A stretch of 64,000 bases of DNA from an uncultured Verrucomicrobiales bacterium. Lineage in GTDB: Bacteria > Verrucomicrobiota > Verrucomicrobiia > Verrucomicrobiales > Akkermansiaceae. Under the pieces are notes generated by a model. The model searched no databases. It was given only the letters and a program-made list of their open reading frames with translations, and had not been told where the DNA came from. The position numbers and the translations under genes are program-made. Location of the stretch: NCBI GenBank assembly GCA_905478925.1, contig CAJQKQ010000020.1:3291-67290 (forward strand), given 5' to 3'. This document shows positions 11,049 to 62,870 of the stretch, piece after piece; the stretch's first letter is position 1, and every line of letters begins with the position of its first letter.

Positions 11049-11510
11049 TCAGAGCTTCACGCCGGCGAGCTTGAGGGCGCGAGTGAAATGTTTTTTCAGC
11101 ACCGGGGTGATGGAGAGGCGGGAGCCTTTCTGGCAGACGGTCATTTCGGAGAGGATCTCATCGTCCTTGAGTGCCTGGAGGGGGATGAGTTCAGCGAAGG
11201 TGGCGATGTGTTCGAAATCGACGAGATAGCAACGGGGCTTTTGCTCGGTGGCCTTGGGATCGAAATACTCGCCGTTTTTCTCGAACTGGGTGGGATCCGG
11301 GTAAGGTGCGGAAGCGACCTTTGCGACGCCGGAGATGCCGGGCGGCTTGGCGTTCGAGTGGTAGAAGAGGGCGAGGTCGCCGACTTTCATGTCGCGCCAC
11401 ATGAAGTTGCGCGCTTGGTAGTTGCGGACGCCGGACCAAGGTTCCTGATCGACCTTTTCGAGATCGTGGATGGAGAAGACGTCGGGTTCGGATTTGATTA
11501 ACCAAGGCAT
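11049..11510 (-). CDS. EVE (PUA-like) domain protein
   Basis: MPWLIKSEPDVFSIHDLEK...WSGVRNYQARNFMWRDMKVGDLALFYHSN is the classical EVE-domain N-terminus. Confidence 0.8.
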   Translation of the reverse strand: MPWLIKSEPDVFSIHDLEKVDQEPWSGVRNYQARNFMWRDMKVGDLALFYHSNAKPPGISGVAKVASAPYPDPTQFEKNGEYFDPKATEQKPRCYLVDFEHIATFAELIPLQALKDDEILSEMTVCQKGSRLSITPVLKKHFTRALKLAGVKL

Positions 11511-11517
11511 GGTGCTG

Positions 11518-11576
11518 GAAAACTCAAAACTTAAAATTCAAAATTCAAACCCTAAGGAAGATAAGAGAATACGGTG
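11518..11576 (+). repeat. AT-rich heptad-periodic element, subtype 1, copy a
   Basis: GAAAACT CAAAACT TAAAATT CAAAATT CAAACCC TAAGGAA GATAAGA, then GAATACGG. It begins 7 nt from the EVE ATG (minus-strand gene). Confidence 0.85.
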
Positions 11577-11618
11577 GGCTGGTTTTGCGCCCCTTTGCGA
11601 CTTTGAGGTGAAAATTTC

Positions 11619-12620: not shown

Positions 12621-12630
12621 ACGGGAGACC

Positions 12631-12668
12631 CTAAATTTTAAACTACTAATTTCAACCCCCAAGAGTGG
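12631..12668 (+). repeat. AT-rich heptad-periodic element, subtype 2, copy b
   Basis: CTAAATT TTAAACT ACTAATT TCAACCC CCAAGAG TGG, directly upstream (gene sense) of the lipA ATG at 12620. Confidence 0.7.
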
Positions 12669-13804: not shown

Positions 13805-14728
13805 TCAGAGACACGCCGCTCCGGCTAGATCGAGCCATGGCTTGAAATCATCCGGGGGAGGGGCGGTGAAGTGGAGTTTTTGTCGGGAGACGGGATGCTC
13901 GAAGGAGAGTTGCCATGCGTGGAGCATGAGGCGGGGGGTGGGGAGTTCGTGTTTTTTCCCGTAGATGGGATCGCCGAGGATGGGGGTGCCGATATGGTGG
14001 AGGTGGACGCGGATCTGGTGGGTGCGGCCGGTGTGGAGGTGGCAGCGGATGAGGGCGGATTTGGTCGCGAGATCGGTGGCGAGGATGCGGTAATCGGTGA
14101 TGGCGGTTTTGCCGGCGGGCGGGGTGATGACCGCCATTTTCTGGCGGTTGACCGGGTGGCGGCCGATGTGTGTGAAGATGGTGTCCTTGTCCTTTAGTGG
14201 GATGCCGTGGGTGACGGCGAGGTAGAGCTTTTCCATGGTGGAGCGCTCGGAGAACTGGGTGACGAGAGACTGGTGGGCGATGTCTGTCTTGGCGACGACG
14301 AGGCAGCCGGAGGTGTCCTTGTCGAGACGGTGGACGATGCCGGGTCGCTCGACTCCGCCGATGCCGGAGAGTTTGCCCTTGCAGTGGTGGAGGAGGGCGT
14401 TGACGAGTGTTCCATCCGGATTGCCGGGGGCGGGGTGGACGACCATGCCGTGAGCTTTGTGGATGACGATGATGTCTGCGTCCTCGAACAGGATGTCGAG
14501 CGGGATGTCCTGCGGGGCGGCGATGTCGGGGACGGCCTCGGGGATGACGACGGAAATGGAGTCGCCGGTTTTCACGGAGTCCCGGGGCTTGGCTGGCTTG
14601 CCGTTGACGCGGATGTATTGCTCGCGAATCAGCGCCTGGATGCGGGAGCGGGAGAGGTCGTCCAGCTTTGAGGCGAGGTAGGCGTCGAGGCGGGGGTGGG
14701 TGCCTTCGGCTGAAATTTCAAAACTCAA
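13805..14728 (-). CDS. rluD: RluA-family 23S rRNA pseudouridine synthase (RluD-like)
   Basis: S4 domain (RLDAYLA...SRSRIQALI...VNG) and catalytic HRLDKDTSG. The only in-frame start upstream of the S4 domain is a TTG at 14728, which lies inside heptad element c. Confidence 0.85.
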   Translation of the reverse strand: MSFEISAEGTHPRLDAYLASKLDDLSRSRIQALIREQYIRVNGKPAKPRDSVKTGDSISVVIPEAVPDIAAPQDIPLDILFEDADIIVIHKAHGMVVHPAPGNPDGTLVNALLHHCKGKLSGIGGVERPGIVHRLDKDTSGCLVVAKTDIAHQSLVTQFSERSTMEKLYLAVTHGIPLKDKDTIFTHIGRHPVNRQKMAVITPPAGKTAITDYRILATDLATKSALIRCHLHTGRTHQIRVHLHHIGTPILGDPIYGKKHELPTPRLMLHAWQLSFEHPVSRQKLHFTAPPPDDFKPWLDLAGAACL

Positions 14729-14768
14729 AATTCAAAATTCAAACCTCAAGGAAGAGGTGATGGGGAAT
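14712..14768 (+). repeat. AT-rich heptad-periodic element, subtype 1, copy c
   Basis: GAAATTT CAAAACT CAAAATT CAAAATT CAAACCT CAAGGAA GAGGTGA. It overlaps the rluD start. Confidence 0.85.
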
Positions 14769-28695: not shown

Positions 28696-28738
28696 GGAAA
28701 TTCTAAACTTTAAATTCGAAATCTGAAACGAAATACGG
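28696..28738 (+). repeat. AT-rich heptad-periodic element, subtype 2, copy d
   Basis: GGAAATT CTAAACT TTAAATT CGAAATC TGAAACG AAATACG. It starts 7 nt from the ntrC-like ATG and ends at the kinase stop codon. Confidence 0.85.
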
Positions 28739-29905
28739 TCAGAGGTCGATGGTTGGGGAGGGCAGGAGGCGGGGGCTTGGGGCGGTGTGGGGGAGGTGGA
28801 TGAGGATGTTTGTGCCCTGGTCGGGCTGGGACTGGATCTCGATCTCGCCGCCGTGCTCGCGGATGATGCGGCGGACGATGAGGAGGCCGAGCCCGGTGCC
28901 GGAGGATTTGGTGGTGCGGTATGGCTCGAAAAGGCTGCCCATCTGCTCCGGCGGGATGCCGGTGCCGTTGTCCGAGATGGAGATGAGGAAGTCGGTTTCG
29001 GTGGAGCGAGTTCGTATTTCGATCAGGCCGCCTTCGCCCGGGATCGCCTGGTAGGCATTGCGCAGGAGATTGTAGAAAACCTGCTGAAACTGATCCGGAT
29101 CGATCTGGGCGGTGGGGAGTTTCTCGGAAAGGTCGAGATCGACGCCGATGTTGCGGGAAGCGATTTCCGGCTCAAGCAGTGTCAGTGTCTGGTGCAGGAT
29201 GGCATTGATGTCGCGCGGCTCCCGGCGGGGGGTGGTGGGGCGGACGGCGTGGAGAAACTGTTTAAGGATCGTATCAAGCCTCTGGATTTCCTGGCGGGCG
29301 GTATCGAGATGTTCGGATAGCCCCTTCTTTTGTGCTGCTGGCAGTTTGCGGATTTTCCGCGCCAGCAACTGTAGATGGATGTCGAGCGAGTTGAGGGGGT
29401 TGCCGATTTCATGGGCGATTCCCGCTGCCAGCAGGGTGAGGGCGTTGAGCCGCTCCGATTCCAGGGTTTCCTGGGTCTCGGCATGGGTCGATGTGTTGTC
29501 TCGGATGAGCATGACGTGGCCCAGCGGAAGCTCGTGGTTCTTGGGGTCGTCGATCGGGGAGAGGTAGAAATTCAAGAGGCGGTGCTCGGGGTAAAAGACC
29601 TCGATGTCCCGGGATACGGCCTGGGTTGTGGTGCTGAGTGAGATATTTTCGATCCCTCGGATTTTTGAGGAGATCCTCTCACCGAGTGAATCTGATGGGT
29701 CGAGGCCGAAGAACTGGCAGGCGGCGCGGTTCAGGAACATGATTTTGCCATCCGGATCGAGGATGATCAGCCCTTCCTGCAGCGCCTCGAAAACGTTTTC
29801 CAGGAAGCCCTTTTCTTGGATCAAACGAGTCACGATCTGTTGGATCTCGCCCGGCTCGACTCGATCGATCCGTGCCACGAGTTTTTCTAGGAAACCTGAT
29901 TTCAC
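28739..29905 (-). CDS. Cytoplasmic PAS-domain sensor histidine kinase (NtrB-like)
   Basis: PAS segment, H-box AAGIAHEIGNPL, N-box LRNAYQA, G-boxes DNGTGI and GTGLGL. GTG start at 29905. Confidence 0.88.
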   Translation of the reverse strand: MKSGFLEKLVARIDRVEPGEIQQIVTRLIQEKGFLENVFEALQEGLIILDPDGKIMFLNRAACQFFGLDPSDSLGERISSKIRGIENISLSTTTQAVSRDIEVFYPEHRLLNFYLSPIDDPKNHELPLGHVMLIRDNTSTHAETQETLESERLNALTLLAAGIAHEIGNPLNSLDIHLQLLARKIRKLPAAQKKGLSEHLDTARQEIQRLDTILKQFLHAVRPTTPRREPRDINAILHQTLTLLEPEIASRNIGVDLDLSEKLPTAQIDPDQFQQVFYNLLRNAYQAIPGEGGLIEIRTRSTETDFLISISDNGTGIPPEQMGSLFEPYRTTKSSGTGLGLLIVRRIIREHGGEIEIQSQPDQGTNILIHLPHTAPSPRLLPSPTIDL

Positions 29906-38204: not shown

Positions 38205-38237
38205 TAAACAAACTAACCAAACAACTAACCAAACCAT
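38205..38237 (+). promoter_or_regulatory. G-free A/C-rich leader of rpsA with a 12-nt tandem repeat
   Basis: TAAACAAACTAACCAAACAACTAACCAAACCAT contains no G. AACTAACCAAAC is present twice in tandem (38211-38222, 38223-38234). No Shine-Dalgarno sequence is possible. Confidence 0.6.
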
Positions 38238-51693: not shown

Positions 51694-52677
51694 ATGACAA
51701 CGGAAGAACTACAGGAACGGATTTCGGAAAGCAGTGCATGGATCGGCGAAGTGAAGGCCGAGATGGCGAAGGTGCTGGTGGGGCAAAATGACTTGGTAGA
51801 CAGGCTGCTTGTTGGCTTGCTCTGCAACGGCCATATCCTGCTGGAGGGAGTGCCCGGGCTGGCCAAGACCCTGGCGGTGAAAGCCCTCTCTGGATCGCTT
51901 TCGGCGTCGTTCGCGCGGTTCCAGTTCACCCCGGACCTACTGCCTGCGGATCTTGTCGGAACGATGATCTACCATCCGCAGGACGCTAGGTTCGAGCCGA
52001 AGCTGGGTCCCATTTTCAATAACCTGATCCTCGCTGACGAGATCAACCGGGCACCGGCGAAGGTGCAGTCCGCGTTGCTGGAGGCGATGCAGGAGCGGCA
52101 AGTGACGCTGGGTGATAGATCCTACCCGCTGCCCAAGCCTTTCCTTGTGCTGGCGACCCAGAACCCGATCGATCAGGAGGGAACCTATCAGCTTCCCGAA
52201 GCACAGCTTGACCGTTTCCTGCTGAAAGTGAACGTCGGCTACCCCACGAAGGATGAGGAGCTTGAGATCCTGAATCGGATGGCGACCTCCGCGCCGATTT
52301 ATGAAACGCAGAACAAGGCGACTCCGGAACAGGTCGGTGCGTCCCGCGAGCTGGTGAACGAGGTCTACATCGATGAGTCGATACGGAAATACATCGTTGA
52401 ACTGATCTACTGCACCCGTTTTCCGGTGAAAGTGGATGCACCACTGAAAAACTGGGTTCGCTCTGGGGCTTCGCCGCGCGGAACGATCAACCTCGCCCTC
52501 GCCGCGCGTGCCAGGGCGTTCATGCAGGGGCGGTCTTTCGTGACCCCGCAGGACGTCAAGGATATGGCTCTGGATGTCTTGCGCCACCGCATTCTCCTCA
52601 CCTACGAGGCCGAGGCGGAGGGGATTACCACGGACACCATCGTTCAGAGGGTGCTGGCTAAGGTCGTTGTGCCGTAG
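51694..52677 (+). CDS. moxR: MoxR-family AAA+ ATPase
   Basis: GHILLEGVPGLAKT (Walker A), LILADEINRAP (Walker B), ATQNP. ATG at 51694, with an alternative at 51670. Confidence 0.92.
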   Translation: MTTEELQERISESSAWIGEVKAEMAKVLVGQNDLVDRLLVGLLCNGHILLEGVPGLAKTLAVKALSGSLSASFARFQFTPDLLPADLVGTMIYHPQDARFEPKLGPIFNNLILADEINRAPAKVQSALLEAMQERQVTLGDRSYPLPKPFLVLATQNPIDQEGTYQLPEAQLDRFLLKVNVGYPTKDEELEILNRMATSAPIYETQNKATPEQVGASRELVNEVYIDESIRKYIVELIYCTRFPVKVDAPLKNWVRSGASPRGTINLALAARARAFMQGRSFVTPQDVKDMALDVLRHRILLTYEAEAEGITTDTIVQRVLAKVVVP

Positions 52678-52679
52678 TT

Positions 52680-52730
52680 GGAAATCTAAATTTTAAATTC
52701 GAAACCCCAATGAAGACTTTGGAAGAGGGG
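52680..52730 (+). repeat. AT-rich heptad-periodic element, subtype 2, copy f
   Basis: GGAAAT CTAAATT TTAAATT CGAAACC CCAATGA AGACTTT GGAAGAGGGG, between moxR and the DUF58 gene. Confidence 0.85.
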
Positions 52731-52748
52731 CTGGATTAAGAGTATCAG

Positions 52749-61129: not shown

Positions 61130-61141
61130 TTGACGTTTCCA

Positions 61142-62413
61142 ATGATGTCCGGAAAACAGTTGTTGCCGCTGCTGGTAGGGGTGGCGCTTGGGGTAGGTGG
61201 CTGGTTGTATGGGCACCGCGGCGGCGTGATTCCGGGAGTTTCCATGGAGGATGGAGATTTGAGGGGAAGGATCGCGATGCTGGAGAGGGAGAATGCGTCT
61301 TTGCGTTCGTTGGCGCAGGGCGGTGGGGAAGTCGCTGTGCCGCCGGAGATGGTCGCGCAGGTGGAGAAGGATTATGGGCTATCATTCCTATCAAGTCCTG
61401 TTTTTCACCGGGTTGCGGCGGAGGAGTTGGGATATCGGATCGAGGCGGCGATCGAAAGCCGGCTCGGCCCGCAGGGTGCGGATGACAGGCAGGAGGCATG
61501 GCGGCGGATGGGGTTGCTGCGGGAAGGCGATAAATTGCTCAAACAGCTGGTGGCGGTGAAATCTGTGGGAGCGATCGGATGGTTCGACCAGGTAAGTGGT
61601 GAGGCATGGGTGACGGATCGCTTTGATCCCAAGAATATTCCCGATCAGGCGGCGATGCTGCGGCTGCTTGTGCGGATCCTGCTGAACCAGAATTTCCCGC
61701 CGCCGCCCGCGTATCCCGGCGATGATGCGGCGCGGGCGAGGGAGTCATTGCATGCGGGCGCGGCGAAGGGTGCGGAGTCGCGCCTCTACGCGGCGAGCGC
61801 ACGGGGGATCGGTTTCCTGCCGATGAACGATGACGGCCCTGCGGCGCGGTTGCTGCTCTCGCTGCCGCCCTTTGTGCAGGGGATTACGCAGTTCCCGGCG
61901 ATGGAAGGCAAGGCGTTTGCTGATACGGCCTACGTGAAAGGGACGGAGGCTTTTGCGGAGGGGATGCGGGATGGGATTCAGAGCACCTTCGGAGTGGCGT
62001 TCCCCTCGGAGAAAGAAGACGGCGGCGAGATTGTTTTTCCGGAGATTTCCGACGAGATCTATCTGGAGGAAAGCGGTGGGTATCTGGGGCTTAGGCTGTG
62101 GATTGCGGAAGGTGGTGATGTGGGCCTTGCCGGGGAGGTCGCCCGGGAATGGTTGGCAGACCGATACGTTCTTTTCGCAGATGGTGAGATGTCCTCGGGA
62201 TTGGCTTGGGATGTGGTTTTCGGGGATGGCGAAGCGGCGGATCGTTTCGAAAACTCATGCCATGATCGGCTGGGAGCGCTGGCGGAGGATGGCCGCCTGC
62301 TCGATGTCGTGAGGCTGGGGGAGAAGCGGGTCAGGTTTCTGAATGTGGCGACGGGGAAGGCATTGGAAAAATTCAAAATTCAAAATTTAAAATTCAAGGG
62401 AGAGAAGAAATGA
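61142..62413 (+). CDS. Membrane-anchored hypothetical protein
   Basis: ATG at 61142, one TM (LLPLLVGVALGVGGWLYG), a coiled segment, no known motif. The last 15 codons (EKFKIQNLKFKGEKK) read through heptad element g. Confidence 0.55.
   Translation: MMSGKQLLPLLVGVALGVGGWLYGHRGGVIPGVSMEDGDLRGRIAMLERENASLRSLAQGGGEVAVPPEMVAQVEKDYGLSFLSSPVFHRVAAEELGYRIEAAIESRLGPQGADDRQEAWRRMGLLREGDKLLKQLVAVKSVGAIGWFDQVSGEAWVTDRFDPKNIPDQAAMLRLLVRILLNQNFPPPPAYPGDDAARARESLHAGAAKGAESRLYAASARGIGFLPMNDDGPAARLLLSLPPFVQGITQFPAMEGKAFADTAYVKGTEAFAEGMRDGIQSTFGVAFPSEKEDGGEIVFPEISDEIYLEESGGYLGLRLWIAEGGDVGLAGEVAREWLADRYVLFADGEMSSGLAWDVVFGDGEAADRFENSCHDRLGALAEDGRLLDVVRLGEKRVRFLNVATGKALEKFKIQNLKFKGEKK
62366..62408 (+). repeat. 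AT-rich heptad-periodic element, subtype 1, copy g
   Basis: AAAAATT CAAAATT CAAAATT TAAAATT CAAGGGA GAGAAGA, ending 1 nt before the yjbQ ATG. Confidence 0.85.
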
Positions 62414-62829
62414 AAGTGCATACGGCTGAGATGAAGGTGGAGACGCGGGGTAAGGGGACGTATGAGATTACGGATGAGATTACGCGGATCGTTAGGAACA
62501 CCGGGGTCACGGACGGACAGGTTACGGTTTTCCTGTGTCACACCAGTGCGAGTCTTGTGCTGATGGAAAATGCGGATCCGAGCGCGCGGCGTGACCTTGA
62601 GCGTTGGTTTGACCGTTTGGTGAGGGAGGACGATCCTGATTTTATCCACACCCACGAGGGGCCAGACGATATGCCCAGCCACATCCGGATGGCGCTGACG
62701 CGATCCAGTGAGGTGATCCCCATCCATGGCGGGCGGATGACGCTGGGGACGTGGCAGGGAATTTTTGTGTTTGAACACCGGAGGGATCCGCATGGACGGC
62801 GAATCGCGGTGACGGTGATGGGTGCCTGA
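62410..62829 (+). CDS. yjbQ: YjbQ/UPF0047 family (secondary thiamine-phosphate synthase) protein
   Basis: 139 aa. HTSASL...ENADP...D...H.HEGPDDMPSHI...GRM.LGTWQGI are UPF0047 hallmarks. Confidence 0.85.
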   Translation: MKVHTAEMKVETRGKGTYEITDEITRIVRNTGVTDGQVTVFLCHTSASLVLMENADPSARRDLERWFDRLVREDDPDFIHTHEGPDDMPSHIRMALTRSSEVIPIHGGRMTLGTWQGIFVFEHRRDPHGRRIAVTVMGA

Positions 62830-62833
62830 AACC

Positions 62834-62870
62834 CGAAATTCTAAACTTTAAACCCTAACGAAGAGGGGAT
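62834..62870 (+). repeat. AT-rich heptad-periodic element, subtype 2, copy h
   Basis: CGAAATT CTAAACT TTAAACC CTAACGA AGAGGGG, between yjbQ and nadC. Confidence 0.8.

Follow-up and report, generated by a model that had tools for sequence, protein, structure and literature searches.

A dispersed family of polar heptad-repeat elements at gene boundaries in Verrucomicrobiales, with a possible role in Shine-Dalgarno-independent initiation

The window analysed here is a stretch of 64,000 nucleotides from an uncultured Verrucomicrobiales bacterium (contig CAJQKQ010000020.1, positions 3,291 to 67,290), and the elements in question are three tracts of tandem heptads, (CAAAAYT)4-5, that begin at its positions 11518, 14712 and 62367. 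We found that these tracts very probably belong to one dispersed family of polar elements of about 40-50 bp, located at gene boundaries in Verrucomicrobiales, of which the three represent a genome-specific dialect. The reading that we favour, with a probability of roughly 40%, is that the element would be transcribed as an unstructured U-tract leader for Shine-Dalgarno-independent initiation and would have spread by copying and slippage, every step of which we infer.

The tracts had been proposed at these same positions by a reading of the letters alone (hereafter, the sequence-only reading), and they proved to be real. Tandem Repeats Finder returned period-7 arrays at 11519-11549 (4.4 copies), 14718-14749 (4.6) and 62368-62397 (4.3). 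The pattern AAAAYTCAAAAYTCAA, with up to two mismatches allowed, gave 10 overlapping matches in the window, every one within the three tracts, as compared with a mean of 0.06 in dinucleotide-preserving shuffles, none of which reached 10. The near-identity of copies 1 and 2 held, with 41 of 49 identical positions where about 42 had been counted before, and copy 3 agreed with copies 1 and 2 at 32/42 and 34/42 positions, respectively. A strict 7-bp unit was supported by the period-7 arrays, except in the opening unit of copy 3, which is 8 bases long. The Pfam assignments of the flanking genes, in a window of 58% G+C, are unrelated, as had been stated: an EVE-domain gene (EVE) and lipoyl synthase (Radical_SAM/LIAS_N) at copy 1, an RluD-type pseudouridine synthase at copy 2, and a hypothetical gene and a UPF0047/YjbQ gene at copy 3. 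Together with the shuffles, this indicates a dispersed, non-random repeat and no segmental duplication. What did not survive was the treatment of the three tracts as an entity of their own. The likeness between them extends past the heptads into a common end box, YAAGGRAGA, and they merge with tracts that had been set apart as 'subtype 2' into a single family with seven arrays in the window; the larger element to which the three subtype 1 tracts belong is polar, and they are its local "dialect".

These seven arrays were located by searching for runs of three or more heptads that fit [CTG]AAA[ACT][CT][CT]; they begin at 11518, 12625, 14712, 28697, 52680, 62367 and 62828 and are all A-rich on the + strand, as compared with 0-1 such arrays in local shuffles. 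An eighth array lies 10 kb beyond the end of the window, against the start of argG, giving 8 copies in about 88 kb of this genome, or approximately one per 11 kb. Five of the eight adjoin the start codon of a - strand gene (the EVE gene, lipA, rluD, the NtrC-type response regulator gene and argG) and are T-rich on the mRNA strand of that gene; the other three follow a + strand stop codon and precede the next + strand gene (MoxR-DUF58, hypothetical-yjbQ and yjbQ-nadC). An end box of the form AAAYCY-N-AA-N-GAAGA after the heptads is common to five of the eight copies. The individual copies of the window, with their placement and their scores against the family profile described below, are listed in Table 1.

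Table 1. Heptad elements and end boxes in the window
Feature	Position	Strand	Sequence and placement	Basis
Copy 1, subtype 1	11518..11566	-	Reads TCTTATCTTCCTTAGGG (TTTGAAT)(TTTGAAT)(TTTAAGT)(TTTGAGT)TTTCC; 7 nt before ATG of EVE-domain gene (11510, -); 52 nt past lipoyl synthase stop (11619)	nhmmer E = 2e-4 vs family profile
Copy 2, subtype 1	14712..14760	-	Reads CCTCTTCCTTGAGG (TTTGAAT)(TTTGAAT)(TTTGAGT)(TTTGAAA)TTTC; rluD start codon TTG (14728) within array, overlap ~5 codons	nhmmer E = 3e-6; Pfam S4 + PseudoU_synth_2
Copy 3, subtype 1	62367..62408	+	A-rich strand in sense; within last 15 codons of ORF 61130-62413; 1 nt before yjbQ ATG (62410), which the ORF stop overlaps as ATGA	ORFs and gene calls on 9 strain contigs
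End box, copy 1	11553..11561	+	TAAGGAAGA; gene sense ccTCTTCCTTGAGG; conserved non-heptad end	
End box equivalent, copy 2	14747-14757		CAAGGAAGAGG	
End box equivalent, copy 3	62395-62408		CAAGGGAGAGAAGA	
Degenerate member	12625..12665	-	Leader of lipoyl synthase (ATG 12620, -)	Heptad scan; nhmmer E = 0.42
'Subtype 2' member	28696..28738	-	Entire spacer from histidine kinase stop (28739-28741) to ATG of NtrC-type response regulator (28688)	nhmmer E = 2e-4; Pfam for both flanking genes
Member	52680..52717	+	A-rich in sense; between MoxR ATPase stop (52675-52677) and DUF58 ATG (52749)	nhmmer E = 1e-7; Pfam
Member	62828..62866	+	A-rich in sense; first bases overlap yjbQ stop (TGAAAC); stops 14 nt before nadC ATG (62881)	nhmmer E = 6e-9

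All three subtype 1 tracts contain three or more heptads (4-5 units per tract), in which an A3-4 (T3-4) tract recurs at intervals of 7 nt, and then the box YCYNAANGAAGA or, in copy 3, a variant of it. Copies 1 and 2 fit the 29-nt family pattern given below exactly, and copy 3 combines the heptads with a variant box, CAAGGGAGA; it gave no nhmmer match to the family profile at E <= 10. In copies 1 and 2 the heptad end faces the start codon, which lies 7 nt past the array at the EVE gene and inside it at rluD, where the start position was set by alignment to the N-terminus in the related locus L322. Copy 3 is an exception to this polarity, as its box end abuts the yjbQ ATG, 15 nt past the last heptad, and its array lies inside the upstream open reading frame (ORF). 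The end box of copy 3, AAGGGAGAG, is Shine-Dalgarno-like; no Shine-Dalgarno sequence was found at copies 1 and 2. As RNA, copies 1 and 3 are predicted to be unstructured (z = +0.43 and +0.79, respectively).

To define the family, the 29-nt pattern AAAHYYBAAAHYYBAAAYCYBAABGAAGA was scanned on prokaryote contigs of one genome per species, and at least 113 stretches matched it. Among the matches listed, 77 of 80 were from Verrucomicrobiota (Akkermansiaceae, Verrucomicrobiaceae, Prosthecobacter, Luteolibacter and bins named 'Verrucomicrobiae bacterium'), and the remaining three were from Planctomycetota, with a different unit, (AAATCCG)n, arranged as hairpins. The copies are thus not confined to the window, in agreement with the expectation of the sequence-only reading for a functional element. 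There was no match to the pattern in 2.9 million viral contigs (IMG/VR), and chance matches are therefore negligible. The host of the window belongs to the same group: its YjbQ is nearest to proteins named Akkermansiaceae and Luteolibacter, genes of the Amuc_1100 and Amuc_1102 types (Pfam) adjoin the window, and the window is syntenic, at 72-85% identity, with genome bins labelled Akkermansiaceae and Prosthecobacter. No Rfam family overlapped the element in the window or in 40 of the loci, and a literature search did not find the canonical or the subtype 1 strings in such a context. Absent from the literature and Rfam as searched are the 40-nt polar consensus with its end box, the spread across an order lacking Shine-Dalgarno sequences, the conservation at orthologous genes, the strict A-arm/T-arm hairpin geometry and the strand restriction, the last three of which are described below.

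Read in the sense of the gene, the consensus of the family is ccTCTTCCTTGAGG TTTAAAG TTTAAAA TTTAAAG TTTC, with the start codon mostly 0-11 nt downstream. The element consists of 3-5 heptads, TTTRRRR on one strand, and the end box TCTTCCTTGAGG; the heptad end (GAAAC/GTTTC) abuts the gene and the box end (GGAAGA) points toward intergenic DNA. The end box (logo positions -2 to 11) shaped the pattern with which the family was retrieved; positions that the pattern leaves free were conserved too, such as the last AAAGTTT and the C before TCTTCC, and the logo showed no conservation further upstream of the consensus. In 52 diverged copies the T triplets were kept in 88-100% of cases, nearly all in 96-100%, and the spacers varied only between A and G. 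No single hexamer was more conserved than the rest in these copies, every heptad being equal. That the form TTTRRRR is conserved on one strand suggests a single-stranded reading of each heptad.

A profile built from the pattern matches and run, with a cut-off of E <= 0.01, on the window, the locus just past its end and the 113 loci, yielded 181 copies. In 101 of them the T-rich strand is in sense and a start codon lies -1 to 15 nt past AAAGTTT, mostly 0-11 nt. In another 31 the A-rich strand is in sense and a stop codon overlaps or touches the first bases (TGAAAC or TAAAC). Both features occur in six copies and neither in 43, so that, overall, approximately 60% of copies are T-rich before a start and approximately 20% are A-rich after a stop. 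A separate count on pattern-matched copies gave 62 ATG, 19 GTG and 9 TTG start codons. The genes that recur in different genera include gltX, recF, thyA, lipA, dapF, lpxC, ffh, purU and those for an ABC ATPase, a MoxR ATPase and the EVE protein; element-bearing genes are ordinary housekeeping genes.

Copies also occur as inverted pairs, and all 19 of these are ordered as A-arm, loop and T-arm, never in the reverse order. The heptad ends of a pair point outward, one against a stop codon and the other against a start codon, and at least nine of the pairs form clear stop-hairpin-start junctions. Two inverted pairs fold at -32 and -30 kcal/mol (z = -6.5 and -5.7), in contrast to the single copies of the window, which are unstructured.

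Comparison with related genomes showed that the sites are conserved in a pattern, as the sequence-only reading had asked of a functional element: the EVE and lipA sites keep the element in 4-5 genera. At the EVE start it is present in all four syntenic relatives, L322, L372 and L363 among them, with canonical heptads such as GAAACTT TAAATTT, and the window carries the dialect form GAAAACT CAAAACT TAAAATT CAAAATT. At the lipA start a copy was found in five genomes, clearly so in L322, L372, L363 and L369. The rluD and yjbQ sites were of a different kind. The N-terminus of rluD aligns codon for codon with that in L322 and L290, neither of which has an element upstream, which indicates that copy 2 is a gain in the lineage of the window. 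The yjbQ junction of L399 (complete Akkermansiaceae genome CP059069.1) contains a single unit, only GGAAAATTTCAAGCAAGGGAAGAAATG; copy 3 has therefore grown in place, by about three heptads (21 nt, in frame), within the tail of the upstream ORF. At the yjbQ-nadC junction, L399 has a diverged array and Luteolibacter algae (L398) a remnant; L. algae has no array at the hypothetical-yjbQ junction and almost no copies in the 16 kb examined. That one odd dialect occurs at an old (EVE), a new (rluD) and an expanded (yjbQ) site points to copying or concerted change within the genome. The arrays were identical in nine strain contigs from different samples that differ elsewhere by 1 to about 355 positions per 11 kb, and on this ground a phase-variable microsatellite was rejected. 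Array stability in the short term goes together with plasticity in the longer term. We also observed a Y1_Tnp (PF01797) gene, of the IS200 or REP-associated transposase kind, at L399:20036-20420, 10 kb from the yjbQ locus.

According to the reading that we favour, the element would be transcribed within the mRNA and, in its usual orientation, would form the last ~40 nt of the leader, G-poor and unstructured, with U triplets every 7 nt running up to the start codon. Such a leader may be where the small ribosomal subunit lands in a clade that reportedly does without Shine-Dalgarno pairing. Its reader would probably be a single-strand-binding OB-fold protein, and ribosomal protein S1 and the cold-shock proteins are the candidates, because cold-shock domains bind about 7 nt each. 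Where an inverted A-rich copy follows the upstream stop, the two arms may pair as a hairpin with a stability of about -30 kcal/mol, and its base would bring the stop and start codons together and couple the translation of neighbouring genes. Copying between sites and heptad slippage would both create and alter copies, and function would then be retained where a copy precedes a start codon.

Several observations are consistent with this proposal. Verrucomicrobiales are reported to be globally without Shine-Dalgarno sequences (PMC10798248), and the lowest, below-chance use of these sequences is found in three groups, Verrucomicrobiales, Bacteroidia and Cyanobiaceae (PMC10798248). In the window, starts rarely have a Shine-Dalgarno sequence, and the starts of the relatives likewise show no such signal. 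At 253 confident element-free starts, G fell to 0.16-0.24 at positions -15 to -1 and C rose to 0.47 at -1. The start regions that bear an element were significantly less folded than the others (-7.0 vs -10.9 kcal/mol, p = 1e-9). Some copies are internal to operons, as in the histidine kinase/response regulator and MoxR/DUF58 spacers. A leader of this kind fits the linkage to starts, a clade without Shine-Dalgarno sequences, the operon copies, the low structure, and the periodic and orthologous conservation. The leader of rpsA (window 38205-38237), which is G-free and CAA-rich, has a 12-13-nt tandem unit and lacks a Shine-Dalgarno sequence, is a further sign of Shine-Dalgarno-independent initiation in this genome.

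A more elaborate version of the leader proposal, which we regard as rather unlikely in its entirety, holds that the heptad array and the TCTTCCTTGAGG box would substitute for the Shine-Dalgarno sequence at defined housekeeping genes by recruiting the ribosome, S1 or a cold-shock-type protein in a sequence-specific manner, with one OB fold per 7 nt and hairpin-assisted re-initiation from stop to start. The near-confinement of the leaders to genes on the C-rich strand would then mean that the gene strand (probably lagging-strand, head-on) sets the mode of initiation. As for the period itself, a spacing of 7 places TAA, TAG or TGA in all three frames, and a three-frame stop signal was considered as its cause. 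Although 91% of the heptads contain one of these triplets, TGG was not depleted (10 vs 12.3 expected, p = 0.5), and we rejected this explanation. We also rejected a host expression signal borrowed by phages, as the canonical pattern was unmatched in IMG/VR and the viral matches to looser patterns are other dialects. These come from IMG/VR contigs of high G+C (0.5-0.68; L176-L284, for example L233, L191, L185 and L178) with many heptad dialects, among them (AAATCCG)n, (AAATCCT)n, (AAATCTC)n, (AAAACTG)n and (AAACTTG)n, one contig also containing (TGGTCAT)n; the arrays are usually A-rich in sense and end a few nt ahead of an ATG that lacks a Shine-Dalgarno sequence.

A considerable body of evidence weighs against a leader function. 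The genes served are moderate housekeeping genes, and none encodes a ribosomal protein or is otherwise of a typically highly expressed class. The copies that are A-rich after a stop codon, about 20% of the total, require a second mode of action, via the Shine-Dalgarno-like AAGGAAGAGG box. Roughly 10% of copies have no start codon within 45 nt either way, and some lie between convergent genes. One A-rich copy is located 10 nt past the 3' end of a tRNA-Val gene and two T-rich copies 43 and 80 nt upstream of tRNA genes; translation is irrelevant there, and therefore not every copy can be a translation signal. The gain at rluD, the expansion at yjbQ and the scarcity of copies in L. algae indicate that the signal is dispensable at many sites. 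Two 'RNA' virome runs and four metatranscriptomes yielded scattered intragenic fragments or nothing, so that statements on the RNA are inferred, and we count this on the same side. Finally, T-rich leaders were found on 65 of 293 genes on the C-rich strand, as compared with only one of 187 genes on the G-rich strand (p = 2e-14), a restriction that a pure translation signal does not predict. The leader proposal does not explain the stop-codon copies without a nearby start, the tRNA-adjacent copies or this strand bias.

The strand bias was also seen in other counts. In the relatives, 85 of 90 copies in start context have their gene on the C-rich strand, the A-rich forms showing no strand bias, and the link persisted when skew was taken only over genes of opposite direction (39 vs 18). 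In the window the GC skew was positive throughout (+0.04 to +0.27, mean +0.155), irrespective of gene direction, and each of the eight copies has its A-rich side on the G-rich strand. Among the genes, those of the - strand at 1-37 kb are C-rich on the coding strand, and those of the + strand at 38-64 kb are G-rich on it; in the related loci, C exceeds G on the coding strand in 68% of genes. A chromosome-wide co-orientation of copies was considered and rejected, as the eight of eight in the window were not matched in the relatives, where 22 neighbouring copies lie on the same strand and 16 on opposite strands. What is regular is the association of the copies with GC skew and gene strand.

The same features bear on four other explanations. 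The element could be a compact sigma-70-type promoter with a -35 TTGAGG, a 16-bp AT-rich spacer and a -10 TAAAGT, giving leaderless or near-leaderless mRNA. The block is of promoter size and contains TTGAGG-N16-TAAAGT, a plan shared by the tRNA promoters that we read by eye in related genomes (cTTGNNN-N16/17-TAnnnn), and start codons at offsets 3-6 (22 of 92) suit a leaderless geometry. In Akkermansia muciniphila the -35/-10 signals are of the ordinary kind and about 10% of start sites are leaderless (PMC4782308), a share near the 7-10% of genes with an element here. We nevertheless consider a promoter distinctly unlikely. In 37 of 92 cases the start codon is only 1-4 nt past the -10-like hexamer, as in gltX, the N-terminus of which is secure; this is too close, and those mRNAs must begin further upstream. 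Copy 2 and other subtype 1 copies lack any TAnnnT hexamer; the only one in copy 1 (TAAGTT) is 17 nt from the ATG, and copy 3 has the opposite orientation. The heptads are equally conserved and no -10 stands out; GTG and TTG make up 31% of the starts and are poor for leaderless initiation; a divergent upstream neighbour is not enriched (27% vs 36% of other genes, p = 0.14); and, as promoters, the copies within operons and those that follow stop codons would direct antisense transcription into genes. Each of the two tRNA genes that have an upstream copy possesses its own TTGNNN-N17 promoter downstream of the copy, and the idea of a tRNA gene promoter was rejected for this reason. As punctuation of RNA, the element would be an AU-rich cassette marking transcript cuts or ends at cistron and tRNA boundaries, with an RNase E-type site in every heptad and on both strands (the consensus is RN↓WUU) and, in its paired form, an RNase III substrate or terminator. 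It is true that the heptad end abuts starts and stops alike, that the 3' end of a tRNA is 10 nt away from one copy, that purine-N-UUU recurs every 7 nt in both orientations, that the pairs give long, perfectly matched stems resembling those cut by RNase III in rRNA intervening sequences, and that some copies follow GC-rich hairpins and would supply their U-rich tail. However, hairpins upstream of copies were as frequent and as stable as in shuffles (-7.9 vs -7.5 kcal/mol in the 50 nt upstream; 20% vs 19% at or below -12), and the element is therefore not generally part of an intrinsic terminator; a terminator tail was rejected on this ground, the built-in CCTC/GAGG stem being only 4 bp. As punctuation also leaves the conserved end box and the 3:1 preference for starts over stops unexplained, it appears very unlikely. 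The sequence-only reading had itself pointed to DNA structure, in the form of phased A4 tracts acting by curvature; easy melting or the binding of a nucleoid protein would be variants, and the TTTTGAT heptads of the ctxAB promoter are the known comparison. An AT-rich island of ~28 bp in a genome of 58-60% G+C, TTTAAA cores that are palindromic so that both orientations are alike as duplex DNA, copies at gene starts and gene ends both, and an orientation tied to GC skew, a DNA-level property, all accord with this idea. The 7-bp period of all copies is, however, out of phase with the helical ~10-11 bp, the polarity toward the gene is strict, and the sequence is conserved far beyond compositional need and in a strand-specific manner, with T triplets and purine-only spacers on one strand. 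Judged from these sequence features, curvature seems not to be how the tracts would act, and we hold an effect through DNA structure to be highly improbable; the polarity, the T triplets on one strand and the placement tied to starts and stops argue for a reading at the gene-boundary or RNA level and not for bent DNA.

The remaining explanation, somewhat unlikely in our judgment, is that the copies are selfish or neutral repeats with no dedicated role, namely the arms of hairpin cassettes of the PF05635 (23S_rRNA_IVP) type of 23S rRNA intervening sequence, some carrying a PF05635 four-helix-bundle gene and most being gene-less hairpins, single arms or slippage-grown arrays tolerated at junctions. 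At one junction, conserved in five loci (L313, L323, L327, L382 and L394; for example L382:558-1018), an A-arm and a T-arm flank a 127-aa ORF, and of these five ORFs two reached 41-42 bits with PF05635, above its cut-off of 33.8; this cassette is wedged between the stop of the upstream gene and the start of an ABC-transporter ATPase gene. The 19 gene-less hairpin pairs and ~140 single arms, the gain of the rluD copy, absent in two relatives and matching the unusual dialect of copy 1 at 41/49, the in-situ expansion of the yjbQ copy by three heptads, and the strongly unequal density of copies between relatives are in line with such repeats, and the GC-skew bias recalls elements that move as single-stranded DNA. 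Turnover and dialects are accounted for by this reading, as perhaps is the strand bias. It sits less well with a consensus and orthologous carrier genes kept across several genera, unlike decaying repeats, with a placement far tighter than tolerance needs (the start codon is 0-11 nt away, and the gene is always faced by the same end), and with the lack of any change in array copy number among the nine strain contigs, divergent as they are elsewhere. PF05635 genes occur at only one orthologous site among the 113 loci, and no inverted partner was found for any copy in the window, so none of these forms such a cassette. We saw no target-site duplication or transposase association, although target duplications were not searched for systematically. 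The leader and selfish-repeat readings can both be partly true, in that a spreading repeat would be kept where it aids expression.

The element has relatives in form among known systems. In Nostoc sp. PCC 7120, TTTTGAA/TTCAAAA heptamers have the same unit as subtype 1, (AAAATTC)n = (TTCAAAA)n, and occur in at least three tandem copies near or over the start codons of unrelated genes, including recF, with enhancement of translation as the suggested role (Pradhan et al., bioRxiv 10.1101/2022.06.06.494920). Nostoc belongs to another phylum, and no end box, polar 40-nt consensus, hairpin pairs or strand bias are described there; moreover, the TTCAAAA unit is only one dialect here, the commonest unit of the family being TTTAAAG. 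The unit is shared as a string only, which by itself says nothing on ancestry or reader. TAACTGA heptamers occur in marine Beggiatoaceae, some Cyanobacteria and Bacteroidetes as 2-6 tandem units, mostly a few nt upstream of starts, in spacers without ribosome-binding sites and before genes without a common function; S1, cold-shock proteins and CsrA have been proposed as their readers (MacGregor 2015, PMC4679880). The window tracts resemble them in having at least two tandem 7-nt units near a start codon. The TAACTGA unit is not matched by ours, and those repeats differ further in being nearly always direct (one set is inverted), with no flanking box or conservation at orthologous genes across genera reported. 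The PF05635 cassettes are alike in that arms flank the 127-aa ORF in five loci and gene-less pairs form long stems. They differ in that here they account for one site among 113 loci and none in the window, that most copies are single arms at starts, and that the cassettes lie between protein genes and not in rRNA.

Repetitive extragenic palindromic (REP) sequences, REPINs and repeats of the type of miniature inverted-repeat transposable elements (MITEs), such as Correia elements, are short, intergenic and present in many copies, single or as inverted pairs forming hairpins, at sites that are gained and lost. The element shares all of these properties, including presence/absence differences at rluD (gain) and yjbQ (expansion), but the window copies lack inverted repeats, and the family as a whole has a cross-genus rather than a species-specific consensus, a fixed distance of 0-11 nt from starts and heptad arms, with no RAYT-type partner or target duplication seen. 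Leaderless-gene promoters of Actinobacteria and Deinococcus have a -10 TANNNT 6-8 nt before the start codon; the element resembles them in its TAAAGT near the start codon and TTGAGG 16 bp upstream, but its spacing to the start varies over 12 nt and is too short in ~40% of cases, and subtype 1 copies can lack TAnnnT. AU-rich, S1-dependent translational enhancers are unstructured, G-poor, A/U-rich stretches upstream of starts. The element is like these, and like the Shine-Dalgarno-less leaders of Bacteroidia (PMC10798248), in being unstructured, G-poor and A/U-rich just upstream of the start. Those enhancers and leaders are, however, compositional, with no fixed sequence, whereas the element repeats one consensus of ~40 nt, in which the period is strictly 7 nt and an end box is present.

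Some further observations concern the surroundings of the arrays. Arrays with a terminal GAAGA and the units (AAATCCG)n, (AAATCCC)n or (AAATTCG)n were found in the Planctomycetota loci L298, L299, L328 and L388, three of the four being followed by an inverted copy; they constitute a hairpin-forming heptad family in Gemmatales, Tepidisphaeraceae and Fimbriiglobus. A second repeat, with units like CGCAAAGG/CGCAGAGG (for example ACCGCAAAGGCGCAAAGGTCGC), lies beside the box end of elements in several genera (L332, L373 and L385), and a diverged form of it is present at 11575-11612 of the window, between lipA and copy 1. In a contig of run X27, from a relative or strain with ~98% identity, 274 bases are skipped at 11321-11596, including the 5' part of the EVE gene and copy 1. 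The arrays also disturb gene calls: the C-terminal residues of the hypothetical ORF 61130-62413 are encoded by copy 3 (EKFKIQNLKFKGEKK), the call for rluD (13805-14728) begins at a TTG inside copy 2, and a 9-codon ORF (ATGAAGACTTTGGAAGAGGGGCTGGATTAA) at 52715-52744 begins in the end box of the MoxR/DUF58 copy and stops 4 nt before the DUF58 ATG.

A practical effect of the family is therefore that gene calls are distorted, with ORFs read through arrays and start codons placed inside them. Its wider interest lies in the question of how ribosomes of Verrucomicrobiales find start codons (PMC10798248), for which the family offers a concrete, testable object: a conserved, countable sequence of ~40 nt directly before the starts of roughly one in ten genes, with natural variants available in heptad number, dialect, inverted form and hairpin form. 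Through it, the separate accounts of heptamer repeats in Beggiatoaceae, Cyanobacteria and Bacteroidetes are connected with a polar element that occurs throughout a clade and shows orthologous conservation, measurable turnover and a strong strand bias. Should the element be only a selfish repeat, the family would still be a useful marker of genome dynamics in the order Verrucomicrobiales.

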